Part shown: piece after piece, positions 11,671 through 28,933 of the stretch
How positions within the stretch are numbered: position 1 is the stretch's first letter
Layout of the letters: each line of letters starts with the position of its first letter
Source of the DNA: Thermoproteota archaeon
GTDB taxonomy: Archaea > Asgardarchaeota > Jordiarchaeia > Jordiarchaeales > Freyrarchaeaceae
Length of the DNA: 33,072 nt
Direction of reading: 5' to 3'
Assembly: GCA_029258835.1 (NCBI GenBank)
Contig: JAPDJY010000088.1
Coordinates: 1 to 33,072, forward strand
The notes under the pieces: generated by a model
The model's database searches: none
Seen by the model: the letters and a program-made list of their open reading frames with translations, nothing else
Told to the model about the DNA's origin: nothing
Translations under genes and position numbers: made by a program

Positions 11671-11705
11671 ACTGCTTTCCTCTCTTTCTAATGGGAGATG
11701 GGTGT

Positions 11706-12746
11706 ATGGAGAAGTCTTCATTAAACACGAAGAGGAGGATGCTCGTTAAAAGTGAGGATGAGACGTCAAGGGAGTACGGGAAGTACCCCGATGAGAGGAG
11801 CGTTGAGGAACTTTTAGAGGGATCCTTTGTTAACATCGACAAACCGGCTGGGCCTACAAGCCACGAGGTCTCTTCTTGGGTGAGACGCATCCTTAACTGT
11901 AAGAAGACCGGGCATGCAGGCACACTAGAGCCCTTACTCACGTAAGGGCGGTGAAACCCTAAGGTTACCGGGGTTTTACCCGTAGCTATAGGATACGCCA
12001 CAAAGCTTATTCAAGCATTGCACCTTGCAAGTAAGGAATACGTGTGTGTAATGAGGATGCACGGGGACGTTGGCTTTGAACAGGTTAAAATGGTTTGCAA
12101 CGAGTTTACTGGCCCGGTCTATCAGAGACCTCCAGTTCGATCATCAGTCAAGAGACGGCTTAGGATTAGGAGAATACATAGCATAGAAGCTCTCGAAATG
12201 GACGGCCGAAACGTTTTGCTGAAGATACGCTGCGAGTCAGGAACTTACATTAGGAAGCTGTGCCATGACATAGGGGAAGTTTTGGGGTGCGGAGCACATA
12301 TGCGTGAGCTTAGAAGAATCGGGAGTGGACCATTCACGGAGGAAAATATTGTGACGTTGCATGATTTAAAGGATGCATATGTCTTCTGGATGGAAGAGGG
12401 GGATTTAACTATTAAGAAATTTTTATTGCCAGCCGAAATAGCCGTTCAACACCTACCTAAAATATTCGTTCGTGACTCGGCTGTTGACGCCATATGTCAT
12501 GGCGCTGACCTAGCAGTTCCTGGCGTGGTTAAATTGGAGGAGGGCATCGAGCCGGGGGGGATGGTGGCCATTCTTACCCTTAAAGGAGAGCTCGTCGCAT
12601 TGGGATCTGCTTTAATGTCGACGGAGCAAGTTATTAGAGAAAAGAAGGGGTTGGCCGTTAAGACCAAGAGAGTAATCATGGAGAAGGGGACGTACCCGCC
12701 TCTCTGGAAGAAAAAAGAGGATGCAAAGTCGGATTCTTCGCCTTAA
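11706..12746 (+). CDS. cbf5: H/ACA pseudouridine synthase Cbf5, two exons (11706-11928, 11956-12746); 337 aa after splicing
   Basis: [11 protein letters not shown] and GHAGTL^DPKVTGVLP restored by removing 27 nt; ESGTYIRKL and PUA domain downstream. Confidence 0.95.
11929..11955 (+). other. 27-nt BHB-type intron in the cbf5 catalytic Asp codon
   Basis: Central helix CACT/GGTG, bulges AG^A and AA^A, inner stem GCCCTTAC/GTAAGGGC. Splicing gives CTA GAC CCT (L-D-P). The intron contains an in-frame TAA. Confidence 0.93.
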
Positions 12747-12810
12747 AAGTGGATTTTCTCCTACGGGCATCTGCTCTTTACCTAACTTTTAAACCTGACC
12801 CCTCCGGGGC

Positions 12811-12823
12811 GAAAAGTATAAAA
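12811..12823 (+). promoter_or_regulatory. Putative BRE/TATA promoter for rpl44e-rps27e-aIF2alpha
   Basis: GAAAAG-TATAAAA about 75 nt upstream of the rpl44e start. Confidence 0.5.
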
Positions 12824-12895
12824 TTGGTTTCATTCTCTCCTTACTCAAGCTTGAACGAGATCGAGGTTCTTTAGAGGAAAAGTGGAGGGTTAACG

Positions 12896-13200
12896 GTGAA
12901 ATATCCTAAAATAAGGCGAACCTACTGTCCTAGGTGTAAGAGGCACACCGAGCATTCAGTGAGTGTTTACAAGAAAGGTAAGGATAGGGCTTTAGCGGAG
13001 GGCGCTAGAAGGTACGCGAGAAAGAAACGTGGCTACGGCAGCCAGCCCAATCTTCTCTACGCTGCGTAGAGGGGGGCAAACCGATCCAGAGAGTGTTTGC
13101 AAAAACTACGAAGAAAGTCAGTTTTAAGCTCAAATGTAAGGAGTGCGGCCATATTATTCATACTAAGGGTATCCGCCTTAGGAAGGTTGAAACTGTCTAA
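12896..13200 (+). CDS. rpl44e: 50S ribosomal protein L44e (eL42), two exons (12896-13050, 13080-13200); 91 aa; not in the ORF track
   Basis: [18 protein letters not shown]...GYGSQP^[13 protein letters not shown]...CKECG; GGAGG upstream of GTG; precedes S27e as expected. Confidence 0.95.
13051..13079 (+). other. 29-nt BHB-type intron in rpl44e
   Basis: Central helix GCCC/GGGC, bulges AA^T and AA^A, inner stem CTCTACG/CGTAGAG. Splicing gives CCC AAA CCG (P-K-P). The unspliced frame stops at TAG inside the intron. Confidence 0.9.
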
Positions 13201-13214
13201 AGGAGGGTGCTTGG

Positions 13215-13421
13215 TTGCGGAAGCAGCGTGAGATAATTCCACAGCCTAGAAGCGTGTTCCTGAAGGTTCAATGCCCAGACTGTGGTACGGAAACCATAAT
13301 CTTCGACAGGGCCAGCACTGTCGTTAAGTGCCACGTGTGTGGAGCGATGTTAGCTGAGCCAGGAGGAGGAAAGGCTCGTCTCCTAGTTAAAAAGAAGAAC
13401 ATCATCCAGGTTCTGAGTTGA
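13215..13421 (+). CDS. rps27e: 30S ribosomal protein S27e
   Basis: PRSVFLKVQCPDCG...CHVCG...PGGGKA. Confidence 0.96.
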   Translation: MRKQREIIPQPRSVFLKVQCPDCGTETIIFDRASTVVKCHVCGAMLAEPGGGKARLLVKKKNIIQVLS

Positions 13422-13466
13422 AGTTTTGAGAAGGAAAGTAGGAAAAGTAAGAGAGTGTGGGTGAAA

Positions 13467-14261
13467 ATGGTTAGGTTGCGGAAAGGATTTCCGAGCGAGG
13501 GGGACCTTGTGATAGCCACCGTTACGAGAGTTGCTAAGCATGGAGCCTATGTTTCCTTAGACGAGTACGAGGGGAAGGAGGGGCTAATCCACATTTCAGA
13601 GATTTCTCAAAGCTGGGTTCGGAACATAAGAAACTTTGTTAGAGAAGGGCAGAAGGTTGTTGCTAAGGTCCTTAGAACCGATCCTAGGAAAGGGTTTATA
13701 GATCTTTCACTTCGAAGGGTGACGGAATATCAGAGGAAGCAGAAAATACAGGAGTGGAAGAGGGCGCAGAAGGCTGATAACCTTCTTGAGCTGGCTGCAG
13801 GAAAGCTTAAGGCAACCATTGATGAAGTCTACGAGAAGGTAGGATGGCCTCTTGAAGACAAATATGGGGAGATATATGCTGGACTGGAGGAGGCTTCAGA
13901 GAGAGGGGAGCAAGCTCTTCTCGACGCAGGCGTTGACGAGAAATGGGCCGCTGTTGTAGCCGAGCTAGCCCGAGCATACGTTGAAATTCCAAGGGTTAGG
14001 ATAGGGGGGTTCCTCGAACTAACTTGCTGGAAGCCTAACGGAATAGACGCCATTAAGAAGATGTTAATCTCGGCCGAAAAGGCCGCAGGGAACGGTGACA
14101 TATCCGTTGAAATATACACGGTGGGGGCTCCCAGATATAAAGTCGAGGTAACGGCTAAGGATTATAAGCAAGCTGAAGCCGCGTTAAAGAAGGTGGTGGA
14201 TACTGCATTAGCGATAATTAAAAGCGAGCGCGGGCAAGGATCCTTCACACGTGAAAAGTAA
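13467..14261 (+). CDS. eif2a: Translation initiation factor 2 alpha subunit (aIF2alpha)
   Basis: S1 domain (GAYVSLDEY, IHISEIS, IDLSLRRV) and GAPRY motif. The start may be up to 4 codons earlier. Confidence 0.95.
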   Translation: MVRLRKGFPSEGDLVIATVTRVAKHGAYVSLDEYEGKEGLIHISEISQSWVRNIRNFVREGQKVVAKVLRTDPRKGFIDLSLRRVTEYQRKQKIQEWKRAQKADNLLELAAGKLKATIDEVYEKVGWPLEDKYGEIYAGLEEASERGEQALLDAGVDEKWAAVVAELARAYVEIPRVRIGGFLELTCWKPNGIDAIKKMLISAEKAAGNGDISVEIYTVGAPRYKVEVTAKDYKQAEAALKKVVDTALAIIKSERGQGSFTREK

Positions 14262-14279
14262 GGTAAGTTTAGACCTTCT

Positions 14280-14459
14280 TTACGTTGACTTTAACTCCAT
14301 TAGTTCTTTCTTCCGTTTCCTTCTCCACTCACCTAAGCGGTCTTCTATGGAGAATTTCGGCGGGTGGGGGATCCTAACCTCTCCTCCACAGTAGGGACAG
14401 GCATCCTGCCTTAGAGTGTACCGGCCACATGAAACACACTTTCTAAGTAGGAACCCCAT
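14280..14459 (-). CDS. nop10: H/ACA RNP protein Nop10 (59 aa; below the ORF-track cutoff)
   Basis: MGFLLRKCVSCGRYTLRQDACPYCGG...PHPPKFSIED read on the minus strand. Confidence 0.93.
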   Translation of the reverse strand: MGFLLRKCVSCGRYTLRQDACPYCGGEVRIPHPPKFSIEDRLGEWRRKRKKELMELKST

Positions 14460-14474
14460 TAGGGAGCACCCTTA

Positions 14475-17000
14475 TCAGCTTACTGTAACTTCCATTTCCC
14501 TCTCTAAATCAGGGATGGATGCCACTATCTTTAGGGGTACTTTATCGCCACTGTTAAGGGTTAACCCGCTTGCTTTGAAGGATAACTCCACGCTTTCACC
14601 CGGCTGAATAGTCACACCGGAGAAGTCGCATGCCGTACCATTAAGGTAGATTCCCGTAACGTTGAACGCGACTTTTCCATTGTTAACTATCCTTGCTACG
14701 CCGTTCCCTGACGCGTCGATGCTTACACTTTCAACGCTCATATTTGCGTCCAGAATTGAGTAATCTATTTCGAAGATCTTAACCAAGTGGTTGCTCGATA
14801 TGAAAACCGGCTTGAAGTGTTTTAAAACGCTGAAGCCGTGCTGCCAATTGGGGTACCATCCCGGAGGGTTTCCAACCTCATTGTACCCTATCACGAGGGG
14901 GTAACCGTTATCCTGCATGTAGCTGTAAAGACGGTACTCCAACGCGTTTTGAGACGGGTTTTCGGGGTTAGGGTCGTGATAGTAGAGAAGCTTGTAGAGG
15001 GTCATATTGAAGAAGCTTGGAAGGTATTTTACTCCGGTTGGCGTGGGAGCATAATACTCGTACTCCCATGGCGTGTAAAAAACGTTAAAGGAGATCTTCG
15101 CCATCCAGATCCATTTCCCCTCGTCTCCATGCAGGTTTGCGTCGTTATGCCCAAAGTACACGAGGACATGGGTGGCGTTGAACTGACGCAGGATCTCCAA
15201 GCTTTCCGTCTCATTGGTAGACGTTAACGCCCTTCCAACAAGCGCTATTTGAGTTGTGTTAAATGTTGCATTGTCAACCACGGTTGTCTTGTTGCCCCTG
15301 ACGGTAATCCAGTAGCCATAATCCCACCAAGATACTATAATAGCGTTTGGAGGCAGCTCGTTCTGCATGAATGCAAATGCCTCCTCCCAGTCAAGGTAAA
15401 AGTTCCCATAGCTGTCCCTTGGAGCCATCTGAGGCGAGCCGGAAAAGACCGTTGCCGTTACACCGTGATGGAAAGCAAAGAAAAGGAGAATTCCAGTTAT
15501 CGCAAAAACGGCAAAGGCAGATTCTTTACCCAAGATCTTCCTTACAATAGCTCTCCTTCTTTTAATGGCTATCTTCTCCTCGCCTAGGAGTACGCGTGAA
15601 AGCGGGTCATATATCATGGCGAGGGCGAAGCCCGACATGAGACACGCCACGGGGGCAAAAAGTAGTACGAGCCGAATCATGGACCCTGCGAAGTAGACAG
15701 TCGTCACGCCCAAGATTAACAGCATGAGATCTTCATCCCTTCTCCTTTGAAACGCAAAGTACATTCCAACAGGGAAAAGTATTACTGTAACGTGAAGGTC
15801 GTAGAAGAACATGCCCCACGCTGTGGAAGCATGCTCAGCGACGCTTGCTATGATTACCTCTTCCTCTCTGTAGAATGGATTGGCTACCGACAGATAGCGT
15901 CCGCTAATACTTAAAAACGAACTTAACTTGTAAGATAAAGCAAGGGAGAGAATAGGATTTGAATATAAAAGCAGCATTACACACGCTAGGAGGCTTACAG
16001 TGACCGCTGCTAGCGTGAGTGCGGCATTCCTCCTAGTTTTTATGAGATTGTGAATCTGCGGGTACTTAGCTATTTTTTCAGGGATGCTGCGGATTGCAGG
16101 TTTAACCCGCGGATACACTTCATAGAGCACAAGTATCAGTAACCCAATTATTGCGGGAAGTGCGCTTCCTGAAACTAGGTAGCCGGCATCGTATTCCGGG
16201 ACACGTGTGGCCACGAAGAGGCCCAGTGTTACGGTTATGCTATATCCTATTAGCAGGTTGCTCGAGTACCTCTTAAGTAGGATTAATAGGATGACTGCTA
16301 ACGGGAGAACGTACAGCATGTATATTGCAGCCCCCCAGCTGGCTATGAACCCTCCCAAGCTTAACCCAGCCATAACCGCTGAAAAAACCGATTTCCTCTT
16401 CAAGGATCTTATGAAGAAGAAAGTTGTCAATATGAAGAAGAATAGGCCTACACACTCGTTGTCAAAAAAGCCTGCGATGGTCCGTTCAATGAAGCCTGGG
16501 GTGAAGGAAAGCAGGAAGGAGGCTATTAGGCCTGCTTTCTCGTCTAAGACTTCACGTCCGAGGAAGAACATTGCGACGCAGGAGGCGGCGCCCATGACGG
16601 CTGGGAGGACGTAACAAACCATGTACACGTCGAGGTTAACGCCTAATGCTTTTAGTAAGAAGTATAATGTAGCGGCTGTGAAGGGGACTCCTGGAAGGTA
16701 GCTGCGTGATATATCTTGCCCATACGGGTACCACCTCATCCTGTCATACCATCCAAACCAGGCACCATACCCGTAAGTAGTTATAAACACGGTGTTATAG
16801 TACTGGATCCAGGGGTCATACGCTGCTATGTAGGGGGGATACAGGAAGAACGGGAAAAGCCTGATTAAGAAGGCAAGAAGTGCTATTAGTGCGACGCTTG
16901 CAGCTAGGACGAAGAGCTTTTTATCAACTTTGACCTTAACTACCCGGAGGATGTCGTCGAAAAGGCTTGCCAGAAAACTCCTGTTTGCCAACGGACTCAT
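14475..17000 (-). CDS. aglB: Oligosaccharyltransferase AglB/STT3 with a C-terminal Ig-like domain
   Basis: YDPW, GFFDNE, SVAEH, WWDYG and DEGK (DK) motifs; many TM helices. Confidence 0.96.
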   Translation of the reverse strand: MSPLANRSFLASLFDDILRVVKVKVDKKLFVLAASVALIALLAFLIRLFPFFLYPPYIAAYDPWIQYYNTVFITTYGYGAWFGWYDRMRWYPYGQDISRSYLPGVPFTAATLYFLLKALGVNLDVYMVCYVLPAVMGAASCVAMFFLGREVLDEKAGLIASFLLSFTPGFIERTIAGFFDNECVGLFFFILTTFFFIRSLKRKSVFSAVMAGLSLGGFIASWGAAIYMLYVLPLAVILLILLKRYSSNLLIGYSITVTLGLFVATRVPEYDAGYLVSGSALPAIIGLLILVLYEVYPRVKPAIRSIPEKIAKYPQIHNLIKTRRNAALTLAAVTVSLLACVMLLLYSNPILSLALSYKLSSFLSISGRYLSVANPFYREEEVIIASVAEHASTAWGMFFYDLHVTVILFPVGMYFAFQRRRDEDLMLLILGVTTVYFAGSMIRLVLLFAPVACLMSGFALAMIYDPLSRVLLGEEKIAIKRRRAIVRKILGKESAFAVFAITGILLFFAFHHGVTATVFSGSPQMAPRDSYGNFYLDWEEAFAFMQNELPPNAIIVSWWDYGYWITVRGNKTTVVDNATFNTTQIALVGRALTSTNETESLEILRQFNATHVLVYFGHNDANLHGDEGKWIWMAKISFNVFYTPWEYEYYAPTPTGVKYLPSFFNMTLYKLLYYHDPNPENPSQNALEYRLYSYMQDNGYPLVIGYNEVGNPPGWYPNWQHGFSVLKHFKPVFISSNHLVKIFEIDYSILDANMSVESVSIDASGNGVARIVNNGKVAFNVTGIYLNGTACDFSGVTIQPGESVELSFKASGLTLNSGDKVPLKIVASIPDLEREMEVTVS

Positions 17001-17120
17001 CCCGTTTCTCCCTTTATTTAATTTTCCTCTTTACATCACCCCTCTTTTAAAGATATCTTTCCCTTACGGATCCTCCATGATAAGAAGTTTTTTGGTGGAA
17101 TGAGAGAGCTGTGGATGGAT

Positions 17121-17134
17121 AAGCTTTATAAAAA
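17121..17134 (+). promoter_or_regulatory. Putative TATA box for rps3ae
   Basis: AAGCTTTATAAAAA in the divergent aglB/rps3ae spacer. Confidence 0.45.
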
Positions 17135-17205
17135 GGGTGCGTGTAGTCCCTTTGTCAAAGATGATGTTAGTCAAGATGTTACAGTTGGATCCGGGGCGGT
17201 CGCTG

Positions 17206-17826
17206 ATGAGCCGTAAAGAGCGTGTGAAGGATACATGGAGCACTAAAAAGTGGTTTACCGTCCTAGCCCCACCCTACTTTGGTAACGTTGAGATCGGGTT
17301 GACTCCGGCGAACAGCCCAGAGAAGATCCTTGGTAGAGTGATGGAGACTACACTGTACGACATTACAGGAGACTTCTCGTTGATCCACGTGAAACTTTAC
17401 TTTAAAATAATAAACGTTTCAGGGGATGTTGCGCAGACAGAGTTTCACGGCCACGAATTTGCACGGGACTTCCTCAGGAGCCTTATAAGGCGGGGAAGCA
17501 GTAAAGTGGAAGGTATCTTCGACGTTGTAACCAGGGATGGACGGGGGTTACGCGTCTACCCTGTAGCGTTCACTGTAAACAGGATCAAGACCAGCCAAGA
17601 AAAAGCCATTAGGAAGGTAATGAAGGAAATAGTGGAAAACAAGGCGAAGCAGCTTGATTATGGCGACTTCGCCCAAGAGATGGTGCTGGGCAAGGTGGGC
17701 TCTGAAATTTATAACTTAGCTAGGAAAATAGCGCCCTTAAGGAAATGTGATGTTTGGAAGTCGAAGCCTATTAAGCTTCGCACACGGGTGGTGGAGGTAG
17801 GTCAGGAGGCTGTCCAACCAGCTTAA
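17206..17826 (+). CDS. rps3ae: 30S ribosomal protein S3Ae (eS1)
   Basis: KDTWSTKKWFTVLAP, GRVMETTLYDITGDF and RSLIRRGSSK motifs. Start placed at MSRKER. Confidence 0.96.
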   Translation: MSRKERVKDTWSTKKWFTVLAPPYFGNVEIGLTPANSPEKILGRVMETTLYDITGDFSLIHVKLYFKIINVSGDVAQTEFHGHEFARDFLRSLIRRGSSKVEGIFDVVTRDGRGLRVYPVAFTVNRIKTSQEKAIRKVMKEIVENKAKQLDYGDFAQEMVLGKVGSEIYNLARKIAPLRKCDVWKSKPIKLRTRVVEVGQEAVQPA

Positions 17827-17848
17827 TGATGCTTGCGGGGTGTCTACA

Positions 17849-17989
17849 TTGAGCTTGGAGAAGAAGTGTGTTAAGTGTGGTTCCCCCCAAGTTGAAGTTT
17901 TACTTAGGCAGCCGTTAACTTCAGGGGTTGAGTACACTTACAAGTGTTTAGTATGCCACCACACATGGAAGGAAAAAAGGAAGCGGTAA
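17849..17989 (+). CDS. 46-aa zinc-ribbon protein, TFS/RpoM C-terminal-like; not in the ORF track
   Basis: MSLEKKCVKCGSPQVEVLLRQPLTSGVEYTYKCLVCHHTWKEKRKR*; GGGGTG SD-like motif 6 nt before TTG. Confidence 0.7.
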   Translation: MSLEKKCVKCGSPQVEVLLRQPLTSGVEYTYKCLVCHHTWKEKRKR

Positions 17990-18011
17990 AAGAAGCGACA
18001 CACGTCTACCC

Positions 18012-18284
18012 TTACTTTTTAACGTTTCTCCGGGTTAACTCCGCGGTTTTCTCTGTGAGAGAGGCGCTTGCAAGGATGTCGTCGATCGTTGATAAGAAGG
18101 TGTTAAGGCCCTTTTCACATTCGACCATTATGATCAGCTTCTCTCCGACGTTTTTCATGCTTAACTTTAACCCTTTAGGAAGAGGCTTATTGTCTGGGAG
18201 CAGCGTTTTAAACATTACCTCTGCCATGTGGGCATCCTCAAATAGTATCTCGATCACCGCTTTAGATCTGCTATCTTCCGCCAC
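18012..18284 (-). CDS. pcc1: KEOPS subunit Pcc1-like protein
   Basis: ~90 aa with LLPDN and FLSTIDDIL motifs; occupies the usual S15-DHH-pcc1 position next to S3Ae. Confidence 0.8.
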   Translation of the reverse strand: MAEDSRSKAVIEILFEDAHMAEVMFKTLLPDNKPLPKGLKLSMKNVGEKLIIMVECEKGLNTFLSTIDDILASASLTEKTAELTRRNVKK

Positions 18285-19692: not shown

Positions 19693-19712
19693 TTTCCCTT
19701 CAAACCCGCCTT

Positions 19713-20171: not shown

Positions 20172-20229
20172 GGCTGAACCCTTCAGAAGTCTTAGACCGT
20201 GAAAGCTGGAGGAACTATGGTTCGAAGAT

Positions 20230-20805
20230 TTAAATAATTTTCGAGCTTCCAGTGAGCCATTCCGCAAGCTTTCTAAGAGCTCTTGCCCTATGGGAAAGGG
20301 CGTTCTTTTCCTCCACTTCAAGCTCTCCGAAGGTCCTCCCGTCGCCTTCGTAGGGTATGAATATAGGGTCGAACCCGAACCCTTTCCCGCCTTTAGCCTC
20401 GTGCGCGATCACTCCGAGGACTTCCCCTCTAAACGTTACGATTCGGCTCTGGTTTACGGCTGCGACTACGGATTCGAACTTTGCCCTGCGGTTTTCAACG
20501 CCATCCATCAACTTCAGGATGCCTTCATTACCTATTTTGCTAAAAACATAGGACGAATATGGCCCCGGAAAGCCATTAAGAGCCTCTATGAACAAGCCGG
20601 CGTCCTCGACGAGGACGACGCCGTCTAAGTGGACCTCACGCATAACATGTTCCAGGCTAAACCTAGCTATCTCCTCCAAGCTTTCCGACTGTACCTCAAC
20701 CCGTTTAACAGTTAACTGTTCGACCGTAATACCGTACTTGGAGAGAACCCTTTTTGCTTCCTTCAACTTGTGAGGGTTTCCGGTGGCGAAAAAAACCTTT
20801 CTCAC
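20230..20805 (-). CDS. rdgB: XTP/dITP diphosphatase (RdgB/HAM1)
   Basis: [27 protein letters not shown] and SHR motifs. GTG overlaps the bud32 stop. Confidence 0.95.
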
Positions 20806-21426
20806 CGTTCCGAGTACCTCCCTCGCCTCTCGATCTCCCACATTTTCTCTATTACAGCGTCTGCCCCGCTGAACGAGCTCCGGTAGCCTTGAAGTATGAT
20901 GCCGAAGGCCTCTTCAAAAACGTCATAGTGGGTGCTTTCCAGCGCCCTCTTCATCAGGTGAAGGTCTACACCGCGGTCCTCAACGCTTCGGGAGAAGTCG
21001 CCCAGTCCGAAGTCTATGAAGAAGATTTTTCCACGGCTGAGTATCATATTAAGTTGTCAGGTCCCCATGTATTACTCCCATCCTATGCAGCCTCCCTATC
21101 GACTTTCCCACCTCGTAAAGTCGTTTACGCAGCTCCTCACCCGGTAACCTGCCACTTTTAATAAGCTCTTTCAAGGTTCCACCTTCAACGTAGTCCATTA
21201 CGATGGTTGCGTTATCTACGTCTACCAGGTAAACAGTTGGCGCCGGTACTCCAGCCCTCTTGGCGGCGTGGAGCAGACGAGCCTCACGCACCGTCCTCTG
21301 CCGCCTTAAAAGAAGGTCCAACTCTGTAACCCTATAATTTTTGGTGACTCTCACCTTGACGAGAACCTTCCTGCCGAAGAGGTCTTCTAGGAAAAGGTGA
21401 GCCTCCGCGCCCTTCCTGAAAAGCAA
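20802..21426 (-). CDS. bud32: KEOPS kinase Bud32, frameshifted at ~21051 in this sequence
   Basis: KGAEA, VKVR and HGDLTT in one frame; NMIL, IDFGL, VDLHL and RGRY in another. The junction ACT T AAT lacks 2 nt of the expected Ser codon. Confidence 0.88.
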
Positions 21427-22472
21427 TTATGACTCCTCCATCCAGGGGACGGTCACCTCGTCAAGCCTCCATCTAGGCTTAACCCGGCTTTCCTCCACTC
21501 TTATTATTCTCCCGCTGGCGTACTCCAGTATTCCTGTCCATGCAATCATTGCCCCATTGTCGCCTGCCAGGGAGGGGGGGACCACATGGAACTCTGCGTC
21601 GTGCTCCTTGGAAATGTATTCGATCATTTCCTGTAGACGCTTGTTCCTAGCCACGCCACCCGTTAGTAAGACCTCTCTTTTACCGGTGTGAGCCAGCGCC
21701 CTCTCCGTCACCTCTGCAAGCATGGAAAAGCATACTTCCTGAACGCTGTAACATAGATCCTCGATCCTGCAGTGTCCTATCTTTCCTATGGCAGCCGTGT
21801 ACAAACCCGAGTACGAGAGGTCCATGCCCTTGACAACATATGGAAGTTGAATAAACAACTTTCCTTTGCCTGCAAGCTCCTCTACCTTTGGCCCTCCAGG
21901 GTGTTTCAAACCGAGAGCCCTAGCAAACATGTCGAGCATGTTCCCCACGGCTATGTCTAATGTTTCGCCGAAAACCCTGTACCTTCCCTTCTCGTAGGCT
22001 GCGACCAGCGTATTCCCCCCGGAAACGTACAGAGTTAAAGGGTCTCTTACGTCCTCGGCGAGGCGGCCTATTTCTATGTGTGCCAGGCAGTGGTTTACGC
22101 CTACTAGGGGTACTTCAAGCAGTAGCGATAATGCCCTGGCAATGGTTGCAACGGTTCTTAAGCAAGGGCCTTTAGGGGGTTCTCTAGCCCCGGCCCCTGC
22201 GAGAAGGCAACAAGGTTGATGTCCTCCATGTTAACTCCTGCATCCTTTAGAGCTGATAGGATTACTTGCTTAGCGCTGTTCGAATGGTGCTGGGCGGCCT
22301 CCCTGGGATGTATCCCTCCTTCGGCCGGAACGTACTCATCCCTAACGTTGGCGAGCACTTCGCCTTCACCGTCCACGATCCCTACGCCTAGGGTGTGCGC
22401 TGTCCCTTCAATCCCGATGCATAGTATTCGGCGGCCACCCAGATTCCTCTTCACCAGCGAGGGGAGGGGCAT
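21427..22472 (-). CDS. kae1: t6A synthase Kae1/TsaD, two exons (22472-22186, 22171-21427); 343 aa after splicing
   Basis: GIEGTAH, GGIHP, SQGPGL^GPCLR, VNHCLAHIE, YVSGGNT and DNGAMIA motifs. The frame is restored by removing 14 nt. Confidence 0.95.
22172..22185 (-). other. 14-nt canonical BHB intron in kae1
   Basis: Outer helix CAGGGGCC/GGCCCTTG, central helix GGGG/CCCT, bulges CT^A and AA^A. Splicing gives GGG CTA GGC CCT (G-L-G-P). Confidence 0.9.
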
Positions 22473-22476
22473 TCCG

Positions 22477-22665
22477 TTACGCCTCTTTCTCCTCTGAGCC
22501 ACCTTCCTTCTTTTTCTCTCTCACATAGTCTGTGTAGCCGCACTTGCCACACGTGTAACGGCGCCAGTGCTCAGCCATGAAAACGCCGGGGCCGCACCTA
22601 GGGCAAAACCTTTTAACACGGACAAGCTTCCCATCAACAATCTTATAATATTTGCTAACGCTCAC
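22477..22665 (-). CDS. rps27ae: 30S ribosomal protein S27ae (eS31)
   Basis: [13 protein letters not shown]...CGKCGYT; GGAGG before GTG. Confidence 0.95.
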
Positions 22666-22709
22666 CCGACCGCCTCCGCCACCTATTTTCAAGGTCGGCT
22701 AGCGTGTTA

Positions 22710-23012
22710 CTACGCTGCCTCCTCACTTTCCTTCACCTCATTTCTCTTAATAATGTATTCTGGCTCCACCTGATAAGCTATTTCCTTTGAATCGTAGATC
22801 ATCGCCGTCCCCTTCGACCGGCCTAAACCGTACTCCGTCACGATCTTCCTAACGTAGACGTTTTCTAGGGGGACGCTTAGAAGGGCGGCTATCTTCCTTC
22901 TCACTTCCATCCTGCTAGGCGTTCCTTCCCCCTGATGCAACACCATGAAGGCAACTTCTTCTCTCTGGAAGAACGGGTTTCTACGTTTAGAGACAACTTT
23001 CACTTCCATCAC
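22710..23012 (-). CDS. rps24e: 30S ribosomal protein S24e
   Basis: NPFFQREE, GTPSR, TEYG and EPEYIIKRN motifs. Confidence 0.95.
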   Translation of the reverse strand: MMEVKVVSKRRNPFFQREEVAFMVLHQGEGTPSRMEVRRKIAALLSVPLENVYVRKIVTEYGLGRSKGTAMIYDSKEIAYQVEPEYIIKRNEVKESEEAA

Positions 23013-23559
23013 AGGCTTCCTCCATCATCTCCCTAACGATGCTGATCGCTCTCCTCCTAGCTTCATCGTTTACGTCCAAGACTACTAACCCCTGCTTCGG
23101 CTGGCCATAAATTATTATCGCCCCCTCAGGGGCGAGTATTATCGCCGGTATCGCCAGTAGGTCTTCTTCTCCATCAACAACCACGTAGACGCGGCCAGTC
23201 TTCGAGTAAGCCTCCCTGATCACCCTCCAAGCATCCTTACTTATCGTCCCGGGAGGATTCTTCAAGTTAAGCCTGACCCCGTCCGTTAAACTCCGGTTCA
23301 AACTAACGGTTCTAAGAGTTTTCCCGTCGACGATGCTAACGTCAAACTCTACGCCGACGTCAAGCAGTGTGTCCGTAGCGACGTCGCCCACCACCACCAC
23401 CTTGGCAGGCTTCCGCGTCGCGATAAGACCTTTAATTTTCAAGCTTGTTTCTGGGTGTTCACCCTCAACCAGCACTCCAAAAGGCTCCTTAAGGGAGTCT
23501 CTGAGGTGAAGCGGCAATTTCAAGTCGCAGTCAGGAATCATCCTTCTCCCCTTTTTCAC
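22987..23559 (-). CDS. DUF359 GTP-dependent dephospho-CoA kinase
   Basis: VGDVAT, DGKTLR, NPPGTI, DGEEDLL and YGQP motifs; conserved synteny. Confidence 0.9.
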   Translation of the reverse strand: MKKGRRMIPDCDLKLPLHLRDSLKEPFGVLVEGEHPETSLKIKGLIATRKPAKVVVVGDVATDTLLDVGVEFDVSIVDGKTLRTVSLNRSLTDGVRLNLKNPPGTISKDAWRVIREAYSKTGRVYVVVDGEEDLLAIPAIILAPEGAIIIYGQPKQGLVVLDVNDEARRRAISIVREMMEEACDGSESCL

Positions 23560-23741
23560 CTCACTTTCAACGCGTACTTACCCTTCTTTTTAATGTCCAG
23601 CCTTCTAGCTATCTGCGAGCCCTCCGGGTCAAATACGATCAGCAACCCCCCGTAGTCGTCGGACAGGGAGTACGACTTACATTCAGGGCACATTTGCCCT
23701 CTCACGAGAAGCTTACATGTGCGGCAAGCCCTTTCCCTCAA
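23556..23741 (-). CDS. spt4: Transcription elongation factor Spt4 (RpoE'')
   Basis: ACRTCK...CPEC...DPEGSQIA...GKYALKVR. Confidence 0.95.
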   Translation of the reverse strand: MRERACRTCKLLVRGQMCPECKSYSLSDDYGGLLIVFDPEGSQIARRLDIKKKGKYALKVR

Positions 23742-23750
23742 CCTTCCACC

Positions 23751-24338
23751 TCAAGAGGAGTGCTTCTCTTCTCCTGCCTCCTGCTTCCCGTATATTCGCT
23801 CCAGTTCCTCCTTTATCCATTCGATCTTCCCGAGGAACGGCTGCCTCATCGTTAAACCTATCCTCCCGCCTCTCGCCCCCCCGCTCATGGACACGGAGAC
23901 AACCCTCGCCCTCACCATGTCGCCCCGCATTATACGCCGCCCAGTCTCCTTCCCTATGAGGGCAGGGGTCTTACTGTCAAAGTCGATGAAGTCGTCCGTG
24001 AGCTGGGAAATGTGTATGAGGCCTTCGACCGGGCCAAGCCTTACGAAGACGCCAAAATCGACGACCTCCGTCACGGCGCCCTCTACGACCTCGTGCTGCT
24101 CCGGTTTAAAGGTGAGAACCCTGAACGTGGCTTGATGGAAGGCGCCTCCGTCTCCTGGGATCAGCCTTCCAACCCCCACGTCCTCCACGTCTATAACGCT
24201 GATAACTATCCCCAAGTCAGGGTCCATCACTTCCTCGTACTCTCTTCTAAGCATTTCAAGAGCTACTTCCTCAACTGGCTCCCCGAACCTGTCAGGGGGG
24301 ATCCTAAGCACGTCTCTAAGAGTTACGAGCTTGTACAT
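23751..24338 (-). CDS. rpoE: RNA polymerase subunit Rpo7 (RpoE')
   Basis: RIPPDRFG, GDGG, FGVFVRLGP and IGLTMRQPFLGK motifs. Confidence 0.96.
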   Translation of the reverse strand: MYKLVTLRDVLRIPPDRFGEPVEEVALEMLRREYEEVMDPDLGIVISVIDVEDVGVGRLIPGDGGAFHQATFRVLTFKPEQHEVVEGAVTEVVDFGVFVRLGPVEGLIHISQLTDDFIDFDSKTPALIGKETGRRIMRGDMVRARVVSVSMSGGARGGRIGLTMRQPFLGKIEWIKEELERIYGKQEAGEEKHSS

Positions 24339-24504
24339 TTCCCATTCACCTCAACAAAACCCCAAGGTAAACGGGGCCTCGTTAAACGAGGGAGCAACAC
24401 TTGGGAACCCCTATGAAAGCCAAAAGGTAGAAGGTGCTGATGGAGGCTACGGTAACCCTAAGCGCCACTATAACTGGCTTGCTTCACCTGTAAGCGACAT
24501 CCCC

Positions 24505-24906
24505 TTATAAAACTTCCCCGTCAAGTGCCAGGTGGTCCTCCTGCCTGAGGAAGACCACGGCGACGCCGGCCTCCCTAAGCTTCCTCCGAAGCTCCCTGTC
24601 ATTGGTGGCTACGACGCACCTTTCAACCTTTTTGGCATAGTTCAAAATTGATTCGTCCACCCCCCCACAGCTGAAGGAGCAAAACTTCACGTTTGCACGA
24701 TCAACAAGTTCCAATGCTGACCTAGCCATCCTTCCAATCTTTCCTCCTCTTCTAGCAAGCTCCTTCAGCTCCCTTAACACGCAGTCTAAAACCACCACTT
24801 CGTACTTTGCAACGATAACCCTATCAAGCTCCGAAAAAAGGTCTAACCCGAGGGAGAAGGGGGCAAGCAGAAAGTTAGTGTCGACCAGAACCTTAACGAC
24901 GTTCAC
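24505..24906 (-). CDS. PIN-domain protein (Fcf1/Utp24-like)
   Basis: VDTNFL, VDESI and VATNDRELR motifs; lies between aIF2gamma and rpoE'. Confidence 0.9.
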
Positions 24907-26198
24907 TTCACAATTCCCCACCCAATGAGTCTCCATCTCCCCGAAACCATCCGGCTCACGGCAACCCTTTGCCCCTCCTCGGCGCAGACCGGCCGGCGCA
25001 GGTTGATCTCGACGACCCCGCCCCTAACCGAGGACACCACGCCTACAGTAACCGATGAGCCAACGTTCAGCATTAACGGCTCATTAACCTTTACATCTTC
25101 CACCTTAGAAAGCTCCACGCTGCCGACAACACGCTCCATTAAATGCAGCTCTAAACTTAAACCATCCCATACTGGGGGAAGGGTACCCGGCTTCCCGACC
25201 ACGCTCCCTATAAGTCCGTCAGCCTTTGTCAAGGAGGGGTCTAGCTTCGTTCCAACGCCAATCAACCCTCCGGGGACAGCTTCCTCGAGCTCCACGCCTC
25301 CACCAGCATGCAAGCTCACAACGTCAGTATAGATGGGCTCGTACCCTCCGCCAAGGCTAACACCAGGGCGAATCTCGATCTCGTCACCGACCCTAACCCT
25401 CCCCTGAACGATAGCTCCGCCAATAACGCCCCCAACCAAGTCCTCAGGCCTCGTACCAGGCTTATTAACGTCGAAAGACCTAGCCACGTACATCCTTAAG
25501 GGCTTACTAAGGTCTCTAGTGGGGGTGGGGATCACCTCCTCGATGCTTTGAACCAAAACGTCAAGGTTCACACCGAAGACGGCTGACACGGGGATGACCG
25601 GGGCGCCCTCGGCGAATGTCCCGCTAATAAACTCCCTGATCTGCCTGTAATGTTCGATTGCCGCCTCCCTAGAGACAAGCTCGATCTTGTTCTGCACGAC
25701 GACGATGTTCCTAACCCCGGTGATTTCCAGCGCGGCGAAGTGCTCCCTCGTCTGAGGCTGAGGGCAAGGCTCGTTCGCCGCGATAACCAAGACGGCGCCA
25801 TCCATCAGGGCGGCGCCACTAATCATGGTAGCCATGAGACGCTCGTGCCCTGGGCTGTCCACGAAGCTAACCTTCCTCAGGAAGACGGCGTCCTCGCCGC
25901 AATGCGGGCACTTGTACCCTCCAGCCATCGCCAACGTGAAGTAGCACTGAGGGGGAGGGCAGGAGGGACACTTCAAAACAACAGCGTCGGCGTAACCCAA
26001 CTTGATGGTGATGCCGCGCCGCTTCTCCTCACTATGACGGTCAGCCCAGACCCCTGTAAGCGCGTGCACAAGGGTGGTTTTCGGCGCCCCCCATCAGCAT
26101 GGATGGGCATTGCCGTGGTCGACGTGTCCTGCGGTGCCTATGTTTACGACGCTTTGCGACTTTGCAGCATCCTCAAATGCGCCAGCATTCCCCGTCAA
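24903..26198 (-). CDS. eif2g: Translation initiation factor 2 gamma subunit, two exons (26198-26110, 26079-24903); 421 aa after splicing
   Basis: [12 protein letters not shown]^[30 protein letters not shown] and WRLIGWG motifs; GGAGGT before TTG. Confidence 0.96.
26080..26109 (-). other. 30-nt BHB-type intron in the aIF2gamma P-loop Lys codon
   Basis: Central helix CGGC/GCCG, bulges AA^T and AA^A, inner stem GCCC..CCAT/ATGG..GGGC. Splicing gives GGC AAA ACC (G-K-T). In-frame TGA inside the intron. Confidence 0.92.
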
Positions 26199-26399
26199 AA
26201 ATAAACCTCCATCAGGTTTTAATAAGTGTGAAGTTACTTTTCCTTTCTCCAGCGGTCTTTTTAAAAGTTTCTTGCATCCAGCTAGCACCTTCCACCGTCA
26301 CCTGCTTCCACGGTTAAAAACCTGCCCTTAACAGTAGAGAAGCCTTGCTCAGGGCGGAGCGGCCAGGAGTCCACGGTGCGGCGCCCTTCAGCCCTCCCC

Positions 26400-27167
26400 T
26401 TAGGGGGGTCGGGCAGCATCGTTTAGCAGGGAGCCTATCTCCTCCTGTATCCTCCTCATCACATCCACACTTATTTGCCCCGGCGCAACAGGATCGTCTA
26501 GTGAGGCATACGTGAAGGGAGAGCCGAAAAGGGGGCAAAGGATCCTCGAAACAGCCCCCAGCCTGCCCATACAGAAGGACACGGTTCTCCCCCGACGCTT
26601 GGTTGAAGCCAGCTTTAAAAGGAGGAGGTTATCCGTGATCCTCCTCGCCAAGGTTACGATTTTAGCTACGTCGCATCCGAGGCTGAAGAGGATGTCAACC
26701 TTCCTAGCCAGGAAACTCCACGTCGGCGTAGCTTCAAAGTCGTGGTAGGACAGGATAAGGGTAACCCCAACCTCTTTACACAGTGAAACCAGCCTGCCGA
26801 GGAGGGCGGGGTCAGTTGACGCCTCCACATCCACGAAGTCCGGTCCAGAAAGAACACACTTCTCTATCAGCTTCACCCGTTCACCCTCGCTAAACGGGAA
26901 AACACCCCCCTCACCTCTACGCCGAACAGTCACGATGACCGGCACCCCAATGTCAGACAGCAGCCTCCCAACCCGAACCCTCCTCCTCTTAAGATAGTCT
27001 AAACGCAACTCCACCAGGTCCGCTCCAGCATCACACGCCCTACGCGCCTTCTCCAGCATACCCTCCTCACTGTCAGCCCTCACGGAGACGCAAACCCTAA
27101 ACAAGCCAGCACCAGCCAGAGAAACCCGCCCCTTACTCCTCAGCAACCTTCCGGGAGGCAACCTCAA
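26400..27167 (-). CDS. aroD: Type I 3-dehydroquinate dehydratase
   Basis: ELRLDYL, TVRRRGEGG, SYHDF, AKIV, SRI and APGQ motifs. The true start is probably downstream of the ORF-track start. Confidence 0.9.
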   Translation of the reverse strand: MRLPPGRLLRSKGRVSLAGAGLFRVCVSVRADSEEGMLEKARRACDAGADLVELRLDYLKRRRVRVGRLLSDIGVPVIVTVRRRGEGGVFPFSEGERVKLIEKCVLSGPDFVDVEASTDPALLGRLVSLCKEVGVTLILSYHDFEATPTWSFLARKVDILFSLGCDVAKIVTLARRITDNLLLLKLASTKRRGRTVSFCMGRLGAVSRILCPLFGSPFTYASLDDPVAPGQISVDVMRRIQEEIGSLLNDAARPP

Positions 27168-27342
27168 GAACAGCTAAAGCTTCACCCTCACCCTTACGGC
27201 CGGGAAGAACCCCCTCCTTGTAGAGTAAATCCCTGACAGCCACACGGACAGCCTCACTCCTACTCCTGTAAACACCAAGCTCGACAAGCATCCTCAAACC
27301 CTTAACGTACTCCTCAGGAACCCTAAACGACGTCGACTTCAT
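27133..27342 (-). CDS. Ribbon-helix-helix (CopG/MetJ-like) DNA-binding protein
   Basis: TSFRVP...LVELGVYRSRSEAVRVAVRDLL. Confidence 0.88.
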   Translation of the reverse strand: MKSTSFRVPEEYVKGLRMLVELGVYRSRSEAVRVAVRDLLYKEGVLPGRKGEGEALAVLEVASRKVAEE

Positions 27343-27591
27343 AAGCTAAATACGCTACAATAGACAATATAAACATGACCTTTCACAGAACACGTAAAAC
27401 ACGAACCCCACCAGCACGGCACTTACACACGTTCACGGCAGACACAACCATAGGGGAAAGCCTCCCAGAACAGGCAAAACACATCCAACACCAGCGGCAG
27501 CCAACACAAAAAGAAAAACACCAGAACAAACCTCAAAAAAGGAACAGGAGAGAACCCCGACAGCCCAGCTTTCACCGGGAAACACGAGCAC

Positions 27592-28933
27592 CTACGACCT
27601 CGCCTTAACCTCCCTAACCACTCCGACGGCAACCGTGTAATCGCTGTCACGCACCGCGAAGCGGCCAAGCTGAGGAATCTCCTTATAGGGCTCAATCACC
27701 ATCGGCCTCGTCGGCTCAAACTCCACCAGCGCCGCGTCACCACGCTTAATATAGTCCGGGTTCTCCTCTATCACCTGCCCCGTCCGCCTATCCAGCTTAG
27801 CCAGAAGCTTCGAAAACCTGCACGCCACCTGAGCCGTGTGAGCGTGAATCACCGGAGTATAGCCCGCCGCGATCGCCGTCGGATGCTGAATAACAATTAT
27901 CTGACCCACAAATCTCTCAGCCACAGTAGGCGGATTAGCCGGGTGGCCAGCCACATCGCCACGCCTAATATCCTTCTTAGAAACACCACGCACGTTAAAG
28001 CCAATGTTATCCCCCGGAACAGCCTCGTCAATCCGCTCATGATGCATCTCTATAGACTTAACCTCACCCTTAACGTTGGGCGGCTGGAAAACAACGGTAT
28101 CACCAGTCTTCAAGACACCAGTCTCAACCCTGCCAACAGGAACAGTCCCCACCCCAGTAATACTGTAAACATCCTGAACCGGAATCCTAAGCGGCTTATC
28201 AACCGGCTTAGGCGGCACCTTCAACATGTCCAAAGCCTCAATCAAAGTCGGCCCATCATACCAAGGCATATTACCGCTCTTCTCAAGCAAGTTATCACCG
28301 GTCCACGCAGAAACAGGAACAAACGGCACCTCGTCAACCTTGTAGCCAACCTGCTTAAGCAACGTCTCCACTTCCTTCCTGATCTCCTCATACCTCTCCT
28401 TACTCCAGTTCACACTCGCATCATCCATCTTATTAACAGCGACAATCATCTGACCAACACCCAGCGTAAACGCAAGATACGCATGCTCCCTCGTCTGACC
28501 ACCAGGACCAATCCCCGCCTCAAACTCACCCTTCCTAGCAGACACCACCAGCACCGCAGCATCAGCCTGCGACGTCCCAGTAATCATATTCTTAATAAAG
28601 TCCTTATGACCTGGAGCATCAATGATAGTGAAGTAATACTTATCTGTCTCAAACTTCCAGAATGAGATGTCGATGGTTAGACCGCGTTCTCTCTCCTCTT
28701 TGAGTTTATCCATAACCCAAGCGAACTTGAAGCTACCCTTTCCAAGCTTTTCTGCTTCCTCTTCATATTGCTTGATTGTCCGCTCATCAATCGCCTTAGT
28801 AAGGTAAAGCAAATGACCCATAAGAGTCGACTTCGGCATTCCCCGGGAAGACAGGTTACACCGCCCGGGGAATATTGCCGTGATCCACGTGCCCTATAAC
28901 CACCAAGTTCAAATGCGGCTTAGAAGCACTCAT
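27592..28933 (-). CDS. tuf: Elongation factor 1-alpha, two exons (28933-28875, 28831-27592); 432 aa after splicing
   Basis: [19 protein letters not shown]^[22 protein letters not shown] and LGRFAVRD motifs. Confidence 0.97.
28832..28874 (-). other. 43-nt BHB-type intron in the EF-1alpha P-loop Lys codon
   Basis: Central helix CGGC/GCCG, bulges AA^T and AA^G, perfect 10-bp inner stem ATTCCCCGGG/CCCGGGGAAT. Splicing gives GGC AAG TCG (G-K-S). In-frame TAA inside the intron. Confidence 0.93.

Follow-up and report, generated by a model that had tools for sequence, protein, structure and literature searches.

Two archaeal mRNAs, those of cbf5 and HVO_1309, are processed by the tRNA splicing endonuclease according to a 2023 review (PMC10485636). 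An intron in the crenarchaeal cbf5 pre-mRNA has been described for Aeropyrum, Sulfolobales, and Desulfurococcales (Watanabe 2002; Yoshinari 2006; Yokobori 2009, PMC2738675). In addition, the tRNA genes of Freyarchaeia/Jordiarchaeia and Atabeyarchaeia are rich in introns with non-canonical BHB motifs, and the reports describing them make no mention of protein-coding intron hosts (PMC11291895; bioRxiv 10.64898/2026.10.13.758758).

The window analyzed here is a stretch of 33,072 nucleotides from an uncultured Asgard archaeon of the class Jordiarchaeia. Within 17 kb of it, the genes for EF-1alpha, aIF2-gamma, Kae1, a ribosomal protein, and Cbf5 each carry a short insert that is very probably a BHB (tRNA-type) mRNA intron spliced by EndA and RtcB. 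The messages of these five single-copy translation-apparatus genes almost certainly need cutting and rejoining by tRNA-splicing enzymes. The anatomy of the inserts, their conservation and covariation, their presence in DNA, the single-copy status of the genes, and the enzyme genes were all observed. The cbf5 gene is split as CTA G↓AC CCT (arrows mark predicted cuts), the very site and codon of the crenarchaeal intron (position per PMC2738675); in position, this insert is the already known intron that the initial annotation had cited as the familiar archaeal mRNA example. No prior report of an rpl44e, kae1, aIF2-gamma, or EF-1alpha intron was found in the searchable literature, within which the claim that such introns in tuf, eif2g, kae1, and rpl44e are undescribed holds.

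Anatomy of the five interrupted genes

All five inserts were confirmed at their predicted positions and lengths, as follows.

11691..11928, + strand: cbf5 exon 1, made up of 79 codons and 1 nt, the last base being the G of the catalytic Asp codon (Pfam DKCLD, 2e-16; spliced translation)
11929..11955, + strand: 27-nt BHB intron of cbf5, in which bulges AG↓A and AA↓A flank the central helix CACT/GGTG; the inner stem of 8 bp is capped by a tetraloop, and TAA lies in frame
11956..12746, + strand: cbf5 exon 2 (Pfam TruB_N C-terminal part, TruB_C_2, PUA)
12896..13050, + strand: rpl44e exon 1, made up of 51 codons and 2 nt (Pfam Ribosomal_L44 positions 1-37)
13051..13079, + strand: 29-nt BHB intron of rpl44e, in which bulges AA↓T and AA↓A flank the central helix GCCC/GGGC; the inner stem consists of 2 bp, a 1-nt bulge, and 6 bp
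13080..13200, + strand: rpl44e exon 2, stop included (spliced translation)
22186..22502, - strand: kae1 exon 1, start GTG 22502 or ATG 22472, 3' end ...GGGCT (Pfam TsaD positions 3-66)
22172..22185, - strand: 14-nt BHB mini-intron of kae1, in which bulges CT↓A and AA↓A flank the central helix GGGG/CCCT; a loop of 7 nt replaces the inner stem, and an outer helix of 9 bp pairs exon with exon
21427..22171, - strand: kae1 exon 2, stop included (Pfam TsaD positions 137-264)
26110..26198, - strand: aIF2-gamma exon 1, probable TTG start, 3' end ...CACGGCAA inside the P-loop Lys codon
26080..26109, - strand: 30-nt BHB intron of aIF2-gamma, in which bulges AA↓T and AA↓A flank the central helix CGGC/GCCG; the inner stem has 4 bp and resumes past a G bulge, and TGA lies in frame
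24903..26079, - strand: aIF2-gamma exon 2, stop included (Pfam GTP_EFTU from profile position 44, GTP_EFTU_D2, eIF2_C)
28875..28933, - strand: EF-1alpha exon 1, ATG 28933, 19 codons plus 2 nt, 3' end ...CACGGCAA
28832..28874, - strand: 43-nt BHB intron of EF-1alpha, in which bulges AA↓T and AA↓G flank the central helix CGGC/GCCG; the inner stem has 10 bp
27592..28831, - strand: EF-1alpha exon 2, stop included (Pfam GTP_EFTU from profile position 16, D2, D3)

Each insert introduces a stop codon or a frame shift; the two with lengths divisible by three, in cbf5 and aIF2-gamma, carry the in-frame TAA and TGA. Pfam domain models are divided between the exons. Removal of the inserts yields open frames of 342 aa (cbf5), 91 aa (rpl44e), 353 aa (kae1), about 412 aa (aIF2-gamma), and about 430 aa (EF-1alpha) and regains the motifs GTLDPKVTG, GYGSQPKP, GPGLGPCLR, GHVDHGKTT, and GHVDHGKST, respectively. 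The cbf5 frame is split after codon position 1 and the other four after position 2, with aIF2-gamma and EF-1alpha both interrupted directly after ...CACGGCAA in the P-loop Lys codon. Cutting past the second bulge base recovers frames and conserved motifs for all five inserts, and the same is true of the orthologues and nine other genes. The initial annotation had proposed exactly this cut as restoring frame and conserved motif; the spliced translations bear it out in every case, and all five of its exon-junction strings match the spliced sequences.

In every insert, two 3-nt bulges bracket a central helix of 4 bp, which is fully Watson-Crick in three inserts and has one G-U pair in each of the remaining two. 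All five introns end in AA. Inner stems extend over 8 bp in cbf5, 2 and 6 bp around a 1-nt bulge in rpl44e, 4(+3) bp in aIF2-gamma, and 10 bp in EF-1alpha; kae1 has the 9-bp outer helix and no inner stem. These folds are precisely those first proposed for each insert, down to the four inner stems and the kae1 outer helix, and both the central and flanking helices were recovered in unconstrained MFE folds. Because a good outer helix is missing or weak in four of the five inserts, which are relaxed HBh' forms, the motifs are relaxed rather than canonical BHB, and their cleavage would hinge on an inferred broad specificity of the EndA of this genome. Across the genome, the strict BHB geometry fits 12 of 45 homology-defined gene breaks, compared with 1 of 45 for a decoy geometry with parallel pairing. 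The BHB fit among gene breaks thus exceeds chance.

We infer EndA cleavage and RtcB ligation of the five transcripts. Each gene would be transcribed with its insert included, and the last six bases of exon 1 (four of the helix and two of the bulge) would base-pair with the intron's 3' end to form the 4-bp helix between two 3-nt bulges. This fold would be steadied by the intron hairpin or, in kae1, by the exon-exon helix. A two-subunit EndA would then cut past the second base of each bulge, and RtcB would ligate the 2',3'-cyclic-phosphate to the 5'-OH exon ends. Only the ligated mRNA would encode Cbf5, L44e, Kae1, aIF2-gamma, or EF-1alpha.

Conservation and extent of the introns

Each of the 11 genomes of the class has the cbf5 intron at the same site, and G041, a genome of another class, has it at the same codon. 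The nine genomes of the class that could be read at kae1 have its intron at the same site, as does G011, and this intron appears to extend to families f3 and f20. The rpl44e intron was found in five of five genomes of the family. The aIF2-gamma intron shares its site with G001, G002, and G003; in G001 and G002 it is preceded, 16 nt upstream, by another BHB intron, and excising both restores the protein sequence. The EF-1alpha intron was not found in any relative examined. Judged by this distribution, the cbf5 and kae1 introns are old, those of rpl44e and aIF2-gamma family-level, and that of EF-1alpha unique to this genome.

Compensatory changes were found in the cbf5 inner stem (positions 1-7 paired in 10 or 11 of 11 genomes, with G-C/A-U and C-G/U-A/U-G alternatives), at position 3 of the kae1 outer helix (G-C/U-A/C-G/U-G, at synonymous exon sites), in the aIF2-gamma central pair (C-G to T-A, U-A in RNA), and in the cbf5 central helix of G041 (CTTT/GAAG compared with CACT/GGTG here); these covariation counts come from few, related genomes and are not independent events.

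Across Asgard archaea, the cbf5 intron is patchy, being verified in families f1, f2, and f13, with most families uninterrupted. Its interiors are too short and too variable for phylogeny, and its presence here may reflect either shared ancestry with the crenarchaeal intron or a separate insertion at a permissive site. Some genomes of families f12, f16, f18, and f19 have shortened cbf5 open frames, which are candidate interruptions.

A homology census of the genome revealed at least nine further strict BHB introns, all on other contigs, in hosts that include ppsA, dnaG, ahcY, gatE, pcm, and radical-SAM genes. Pfam matches are continuous over the predicted junctions, e.g., PPDK_N 2-113 and 114-315 in ppsA and PCMT 2-59 and 61-208. 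Altogether, the genome contains at least 14 mRNA introns; its uninterrupted tRNA genes number only 8 (ARAGORN). The scan of genome and relatives proposed by the initial annotation thus turned up more BHB introns in interrupted conserved genes, and every computational test that it had suggested came out favorably. Its view that the lineage routinely splices mRNAs with the tRNA machinery is supported in kind and has to be narrowed in extent, to dozens of genes at most rather than most genes.

On a tentative and on balance doubtful proposal, BHB introns may be an actively proliferating mRNA intron class in this Asgard branch, with repeated gains that prefer conserved-motif stretches and possibly homologous sites of paralogues (aIF2-gamma family-wide, EF-1alpha in this genome only), and with the expression of core translation factors dependent on, and possibly gated by, EndA and RtcB. 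If true, the lineage would be a prokaryotic model of intron gain and splicing-dependent expression among the closest relatives of eukaryotes.

Evidence from DNA, RNA, and enzyme genes

The assembly is a metagenome bin of 91 contigs with 94.7% completeness and an estimated contamination of 6%, and bins of this kind could contain chimeric joins or mis-assembled repeats. Logan contigs of DNA runs X1 and X2, from different studies, cover 11600-17358 and 20975-29050 and are gapless at every insert. Since two independent metagenomes span all five inserts, they are not assembly artefacts, a concern raised by the initial annotation. Orthologous inserts are also present in independently assembled genomes, complete single-contig ones among them, and each insert sequence is unique within the genome. 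An origin in assembly or binning therefore has a practically negligible probability.

The five genes might alternatively be decaying pseudogenes with random inactivating insertions, as a literal reading leaves all of them broken and the adjacent bud32 has a true frameshift in the same assembly. The bud32 frameshift is missing from the DNA of two other samples, in which the five inserts persist. The five genes are essential and single copy, and no second or intron-free copy of any of them is present in the 94.7%-complete assembly. Their exons are intact and 60-90% identical over at least 10 genomes, the inserts are kept at the same sites, and the inserts have a precise RNA geometry with compensatory changes. 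Pseudogene decay is thus extremely improbable.

Evidence from RNA bears on a further possibility, that the mRNA keeps the inserts, which would then be handled by ribosomal bypassing, by programmed frameshifting, or by production of the two halves as split proteins. Phage T4 gene 60 provides a precedent for translational bypass, of about 50 nt, and RNA-library contigs contain the unspliced inserts of EF-1alpha (run X19) and aIF2-gamma (run X17). These contigs could be pre-mRNA or DNA carry-over. One EF-1alpha contig in X17, a metatranscriptome, joins 28831 to 28875 (GGCAA to GTCG), omitting exactly 43 nt, with a short side of 69 nt; this joint was seen in none of the DNA runs compared. The contig has a depth of 2.5, and 9 of its 182 compared bases depart from the window; these differences are apparently not shared with the X1 and X2 DNA. 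Because it is only 95% identical, it could represent a closely related intron-less allele, or else carry-over of DNA into the RNA library. Of the spliced junctions whose search had been proposed, RNA thus offers a candidate for EF-1alpha only, in one low-depth, 5%-divergent contig; the remaining four junctions had no RNA cover. Against retention, this contig lacks the insert, the sequence specifies no take-off or landing codons, and BHB geometry and codon-exact cut sites are kept in 5 (genome-wide, at least 14) unrelated genes with inserts of 14-55 nt. Split proteins would be broken inside a P-loop, at a catalytic Asp codon, and within a ribosomal protein of 91 aa, with no start signals on the second halves. 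Retention of the inserts is consequently very unlikely.

The genome encodes two EndA paralogues and RtcB (607 bits). The best match of paralogue 1 is chain 3p1z_B of the Aeropyrum pernix EndA (E 4e-46), in which the catalytic His is present (Ala mutant in entry 3ajv_B). This paralogue retains the Tyr/His/Lys residues and a Crenarchaea-type loop, GIRKPKTPQFNKP aligned to DVEKPRGADFEGP; paralogue 2 is without the catalytic His. These features suggest that EndA is of the (alpha-beta)2, or two-subunit, type, which like the epsilon2 type cuts relaxed BHB motifs, and bear on the question of subunit type that the initial annotation had posed. No cleavage assay of any Asgard EndA was found in the searchable literature.

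The role of EndA and RtcB is read from sequence; real introns might instead be excised from RNA by self-splicing or by another nuclease-ligase pair. We consider the chance of this slim indeed. The inserts, at 14-43 nt, are far below the size of group I or group II ribozymes, and the window contains no Rfam match. The geometry is that of a precise EndA substrate, and the genome has both RtcB and an EndA of the predicted relaxed-motif type. Further, hetero-oligomeric EndA reportedly cleaves crenarchaeal cbf5 at the identical site (PMC2738675; PMC10485636).

Implications and comparison with known systems

Standard gene callers will call these essential genes frameshifted or truncated, and such miscalls distort Asgard completeness estimates, marker-gene phylogenies, and metabolic reconstructions. 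If the inserts are BHB introns spliced by EndA and RtcB, protein synthesis in this cell relies on tRNA-splicing enzymes acting on mRNA. The introns are graded in age, from one common to four families to one in a single genome, and occur among the closest prokaryotic relatives of eukaryotes; with this gradation, how protein-gene introns are gained and lost, and at what cost, can be tested directly in a setting that has no spliceosome.

The introns described here resemble the crenarchaeal cbf5 intron in their similar size, relaxed BHB supported by a hairpin within the intron, predicted cut past the second base of the bulge, and association with a predicted hetero-oligomeric EndA. They differ in that they belong to the Asgard phylum, that the cbf5 intron is here not the sole mRNA intron of a genome that has at least 14, and that they are predicted from sequence. 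With archaeal tRNA introns they share motif, size range, predicted enzymes, and a similar pattern of repeated lineage-specific gains, and the classes reported to be richest in tRNA introns are the classes with these mRNA introns. Unlike in tRNA introns, covariation in the mRNA introns runs via synonymous sites (kae1), and the reading frame is set by correct splicing.

The HVO_1309 transcript is reportedly cut in its 5' untranslated region and not in a conserved coding motif, and is said to stand alone, in a euryarchaeon whose EndA is homodimeric. This Haloferax volcanii intron is alike in that the archaeal splicing endonuclease cleaves the mRNA at a BHB (Schwarz et al. 2020, PMC7714728; see also PMC10485636). 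Eukaryotic HAC1/XBP1 splicing is similar in that a short mRNA intron is removed by protein catalysis, without a spliceosome and with a change of frame, and in ligation by a tRNA ligase (RtcB or Trl1), which in metazoa is RtcB. There, however, IRE1 acts on stem-loops of one regulatory target upon stress, whereas here EndA would act on BHB motifs.

Anatomy of the five inserts

The initial annotation reported short introns with a bulge-helix-bulge motif (BHB), as in tRNA introns, in five core translation genes. All five positions and lengths were confirmed, and removal of each insert regains a conserved protein motif.

Inserts, with central helix (exon/intron strand), intron hairpin and motif regained
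11929-11955, + strand: insert in cbf5; CACT/GGTG; hairpin 8 bp; Cbf5 of 342 aa, GTLDPKVTG
13051-13079, + strand: insert in rpl44e; GCCC/GGGC; hairpin 2+6 bp; L44e of 91 aa, GYGSQPKP
22172-22185, - strand: insert in kae1; GGGG/CCCT; loop; Kae1 of 353 aa, GPGLGPCLR
26080-26109, - strand: insert in the aIF2-gamma gene; CGGC/GCCG; hairpin 4(+3) bp; GHVDHGKTT
28832-28874, - strand: insert in the EF-1alpha gene; CGGC/GCCG; hairpin 10 bp; GHVDHGKST

Every insert contains a stop or shifts the frame, and the expectation that excision restores frame and motif was borne out by full-length proteins in all five cases. Pfam divides each of the five families between two exons: the Kae1 exons match TsaD positions 3-66 and 137-264, and in the long exons of aIF2-gamma and EF-1alpha the GTP_EFTU match begins only at profile positions 44 and 16, respectively.

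In each gene, a four-base exon stretch, followed by the two final exon bases, pairs with a four-base intron stretch that is likewise followed by the two final intron bases. The splice points needed fall after the second base of each of two 3-nt bulges in all five, which is the cut geometry initially proposed. In kae1, where the intron is only 14 nt, a loop replaces the inner stem and a 9-bp exon-exon helix is present, again as first described. Unconstrained folds yield the same helices, and the intron regions have modest MFE z-scores, between -2.8 and +0.3. Because shuffled short GC-rich windows also fold well, we argue from geometry and covariation, not from free energy. As a control, we took 45 gene breaks set by homology alone and tested near-optimal splice choices; the strict BHB fits 12 of the 45, compared with 1 of 45 for a decoy geometry of parallel "pairing." Rfam found no family and ARAGORN no tRNA in the window. 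Candidates from a structural scan elsewhere in the window, such as 2017-2044, were rejected, as frames and homology gave them no support.

If the inserts were assembly artefacts, they should be missing from independent DNA. Logan contigs of X1 and X2, two DNA metagenome runs from different studies, cross all five without a gap. The same contigs correct bud32 (20802-21426, - strand), directly downstream of kae1, which has a frameshift at about 21050 (GDLTT* then NMIL). In both runs, two additional bases (AG, + strand) follow 21050; they mend a 2-nt deletion and give GDLTTSNMIL, and the method thus does pick up real assembly or strain errors. The bud32 break stems from an assembly error or from a deletion specific to the strain; it is no intron. 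DNA from other samples also has an extra T behind 24400 (X2) and an extra C behind 27574 (X1 and X2). A pseudogene reading would gain from an intact paralogue, and the 94.7%-complete genome holds no second copy of any of the five genes. Nor did blastn find second copies of the five intron sequences in the genome, so there is no evidence for repeated mobile elements or recent copying among them.

Introns in relatives

The initial annotation proposed scanning relatives, and orthologous BHB introns are indeed present there. Our sample of the class comprised 11 species genomes from two families. The cbf5 intron (27 to 35 nt) occurs at the same codon in all 11; its stems vary in sequence while pairing is kept, with positions 1-7 paired in 10 or 11 of the 11 genomes by several pair types. 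It is also found in a genome of another class (G041), where the synonymous codons ACT TTA G|AT are paired by an altered intron strand, GAAG. Among 121 Asgard genomes, cbf5 frames are shortened to 258-310 aa (versus about 330-360) in some members of families f12, f16, f18 and f19. Shortened frames also occur in f1, f2 and f13, where the intron is verified; those in the former four families may reflect additional cbf5 introns, whether at this site or elsewhere in the gene.

Each of the nine class members that could be read carries the kae1 intron. It is 13-14 nt long in one family; in the second family it measures 28-29 nt and forms a hairpin. In G011, a complete 1.418-Mb Asgard genome, it is 28 nt and AT-rich. 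One pair of its outer helix covaries (G-C/U-A/C-G/U-G), linking the third codon positions of two Gly codons. Judged by open-frame length, every genome sampled from families f3 and f20 has the intron, and the other 22 sampled families with a match lack it. Among 80 kae1 loci of distant archaea (Bathyarchaeia, other Asgard, Hadesarchaea), 73 have no insert at the site and 7 are unreadable.

The remaining introns are more restricted. The rpl44e intron is shared by every one of the family's five genomes. The aIF2-gamma intron is present in four genomes of that family and missing throughout the sister family; among relatives, its first central pair changes from C-G to U-A. Two genomes, G002 (locus L036) and G001 (locus L037), have a second aIF2-gamma BHB intron that splits the His codon of GHVDHGK and lies 16 nt upstream of the common one. 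These introns are 30 and 33 nt long, with central helices of CTGG/CTAG in one and CCGG/CCGG in the other. The EF-1alpha intron occurs in this genome alone, being absent from the 26 other genomes with a readable P-loop region, nine of them in the same class. By this distribution, the set ranges from old through intermediate to very recent.

The aIF2-gamma and EF-1alpha introns split the homologous Lys codon of the P-loop at one and the same position. Both follow the exon octamer CACGGCAA and end 3' in GCCGAA, and their interiors are unrelated. Since one is family-wide and the other confined to the genome holding the window (G000), the shared site may represent gain at a paralogous permissive site. 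Overall, we regard the five inserts with high confidence as genuine BHB introns of mRNAs that are under selection and very probably excised by the archaeal splicing endonuclease EndA and the ligase RtcB.

Extent across the genome

A genome scan had likewise been proposed, and it uncovered nine new BHB introns in other interrupted genes. Using G011 ORFs as probes against the whole of G000, this homology census yielded 12 strict BHB introns, 3 of them in the window. The new introns lie in ppsA, dnaG, two radical-SAM genes, an aconitase-C/LeuD-like gene, ahcY, pcm, gatE and the gene for a small Cys-rich protein, and Pfam profile positions run on across their junctions. The census missed kae1, because G011 has that intron itself, and EF-1alpha, whose first exon is not long enough; the 12 are thus a minimum, and G000 has at least 14 BHB introns in protein genes. 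The remaining 33 breaks relative to G011, including a gene on contig C39 with three, have no strict BHB and may be frameshifts, relaxed motifs outside our criteria or paralogue misalignments.

The census replaced a homology-free scan of structure and ORFs, which returned about 2,200 candidates, compared with about 2,090 under the decoy geometry. Single hits of that scan were not trusted, because chance helices can join adjacent operon genes; the difference of roughly 100 is a hint that the genome might contain up to about 100 introns.

G011 (38% GC) served as an "intron-poor" reference, and the radical-SAM gene at G000 C1:136638 has an orthologue there that is interrupted at roughly the corresponding position (G011:C1:852162-853231; the kae1 intron locus is G011:C1:794801-795809). 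Junctions tend to lie in segments more conserved than the rest of the protein, such as the P-loop, the catalytic Asp and a CxxxCxxC region. For 13 G000 junctions, identity to G011 within 8 aa on either side falls at a mean percentile of 0.79 of the own protein (nominal p about 2e-4), a bias that ascertainment through homology may inflate. ARAGORN recognized only 8 uninterrupted tRNA genes in the genome, which agrees with a published figure of 92-95% intron-bearing tRNA genes for Freyarchaeia and Atabeyarchaeia (PMC11291895).

A repeat of about 196 nt (29863-30057, + strand; partial at 30201-30244) has at least 25 near-full-length copies in the genome at 82-90% identity. It contains an 11-bp inverted repeat and has no Rfam match in the window, and the copy at G000 C40:1631-1826, which lacks BHB ends, breaks a conserved ORF. 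The repeat may be a MITE-like element or represent a family of small RNAs.

RNA evidence, splicing enzymes and known cases

Two metatranscriptome runs from one marine-sediment sample, X17 and X19, contain pieces of the window region, with RNA cover of aIF2-gamma and EF-1alpha and none of the cbf5, rpl44e and kae1 junctions. On the junction check suggested initially, one X17 contig (251 nt, depth 2.5) joins 28831 to 28875, lacking exactly the 43-nt EF-1alpha intron and extending 10 nt past the start codon; this joint was seen in no DNA run. The aIF2-gamma insert in an X17 contig and the EF-1alpha insert in an X19 contig are unspliced. This pattern of missing cover and unspliced inserts could reflect low depth, pre-mRNA or DNA carry-over. 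The joined contig differs from the window at 9 of 182 bases, differences that we infer are not common to the X1 and X2 DNA, and its source could be a closely related organism that lacks the intron, or library DNA. The RNA evidence for splicing is suggestive, not decisive.

On the question of EndA subunit type, the genome encodes two EndA paralogues, located at G000 C1:11942-12514 and about C6:39490-40083, and an intact RtcB. Over its whole length, one of the paralogues matches the EndA chain 3p1z_B from Aeropyrum pernix (E 4e-46), in which the catalytic His is present (it is mutated to Ala in entry 3ajv_B). This paralogue retains Tyr/His/Lys, and a loop of it lines up with the 3p1z_B insert, which we take for the Crenarchaea-specific loop. 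The other paralogue has Ala at the catalytic His position. One catalytic and one His-less paralogue are, by sequence, the signature of a predicted (alpha-beta)2 type; only (alpha-beta)2 and epsilon2 enzymes cut relaxed motifs (PMC5829648, PMC2724299).

The genome contains a full-length actin match (468 bits), and DNA with the window sequence occurs in hydrothermal-vent and marine-sediment metagenomes. Both are in keeping with the probable host lineage, an Asgard archaeon of the class Jordiarchaeia/Freyarchaeia. The link drawn initially to the crenarchaeal cbf5 intron proved exact: in both, the catalytic Asp codon is broken after its first letter (PMC2738675), and the Asgard cbf5 intron is a known intron in a new host phylum. 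The searchable literature yielded no description of the EF-1alpha, aIF2-gamma, kae1 or rpl44e introns, in agreement with the initial annotation, and no report of multi-intron mRNA splicing in one genome. A 2023 review gives cbf5 and HVO_1309 only (PMC10485636), and two papers on Asgard introns are confined to tRNA genes. The mechanism is of a known kind; what stands out is which genes are affected, how many introns a single genome carries, the lineage involved and a history of gains that can still be traced.
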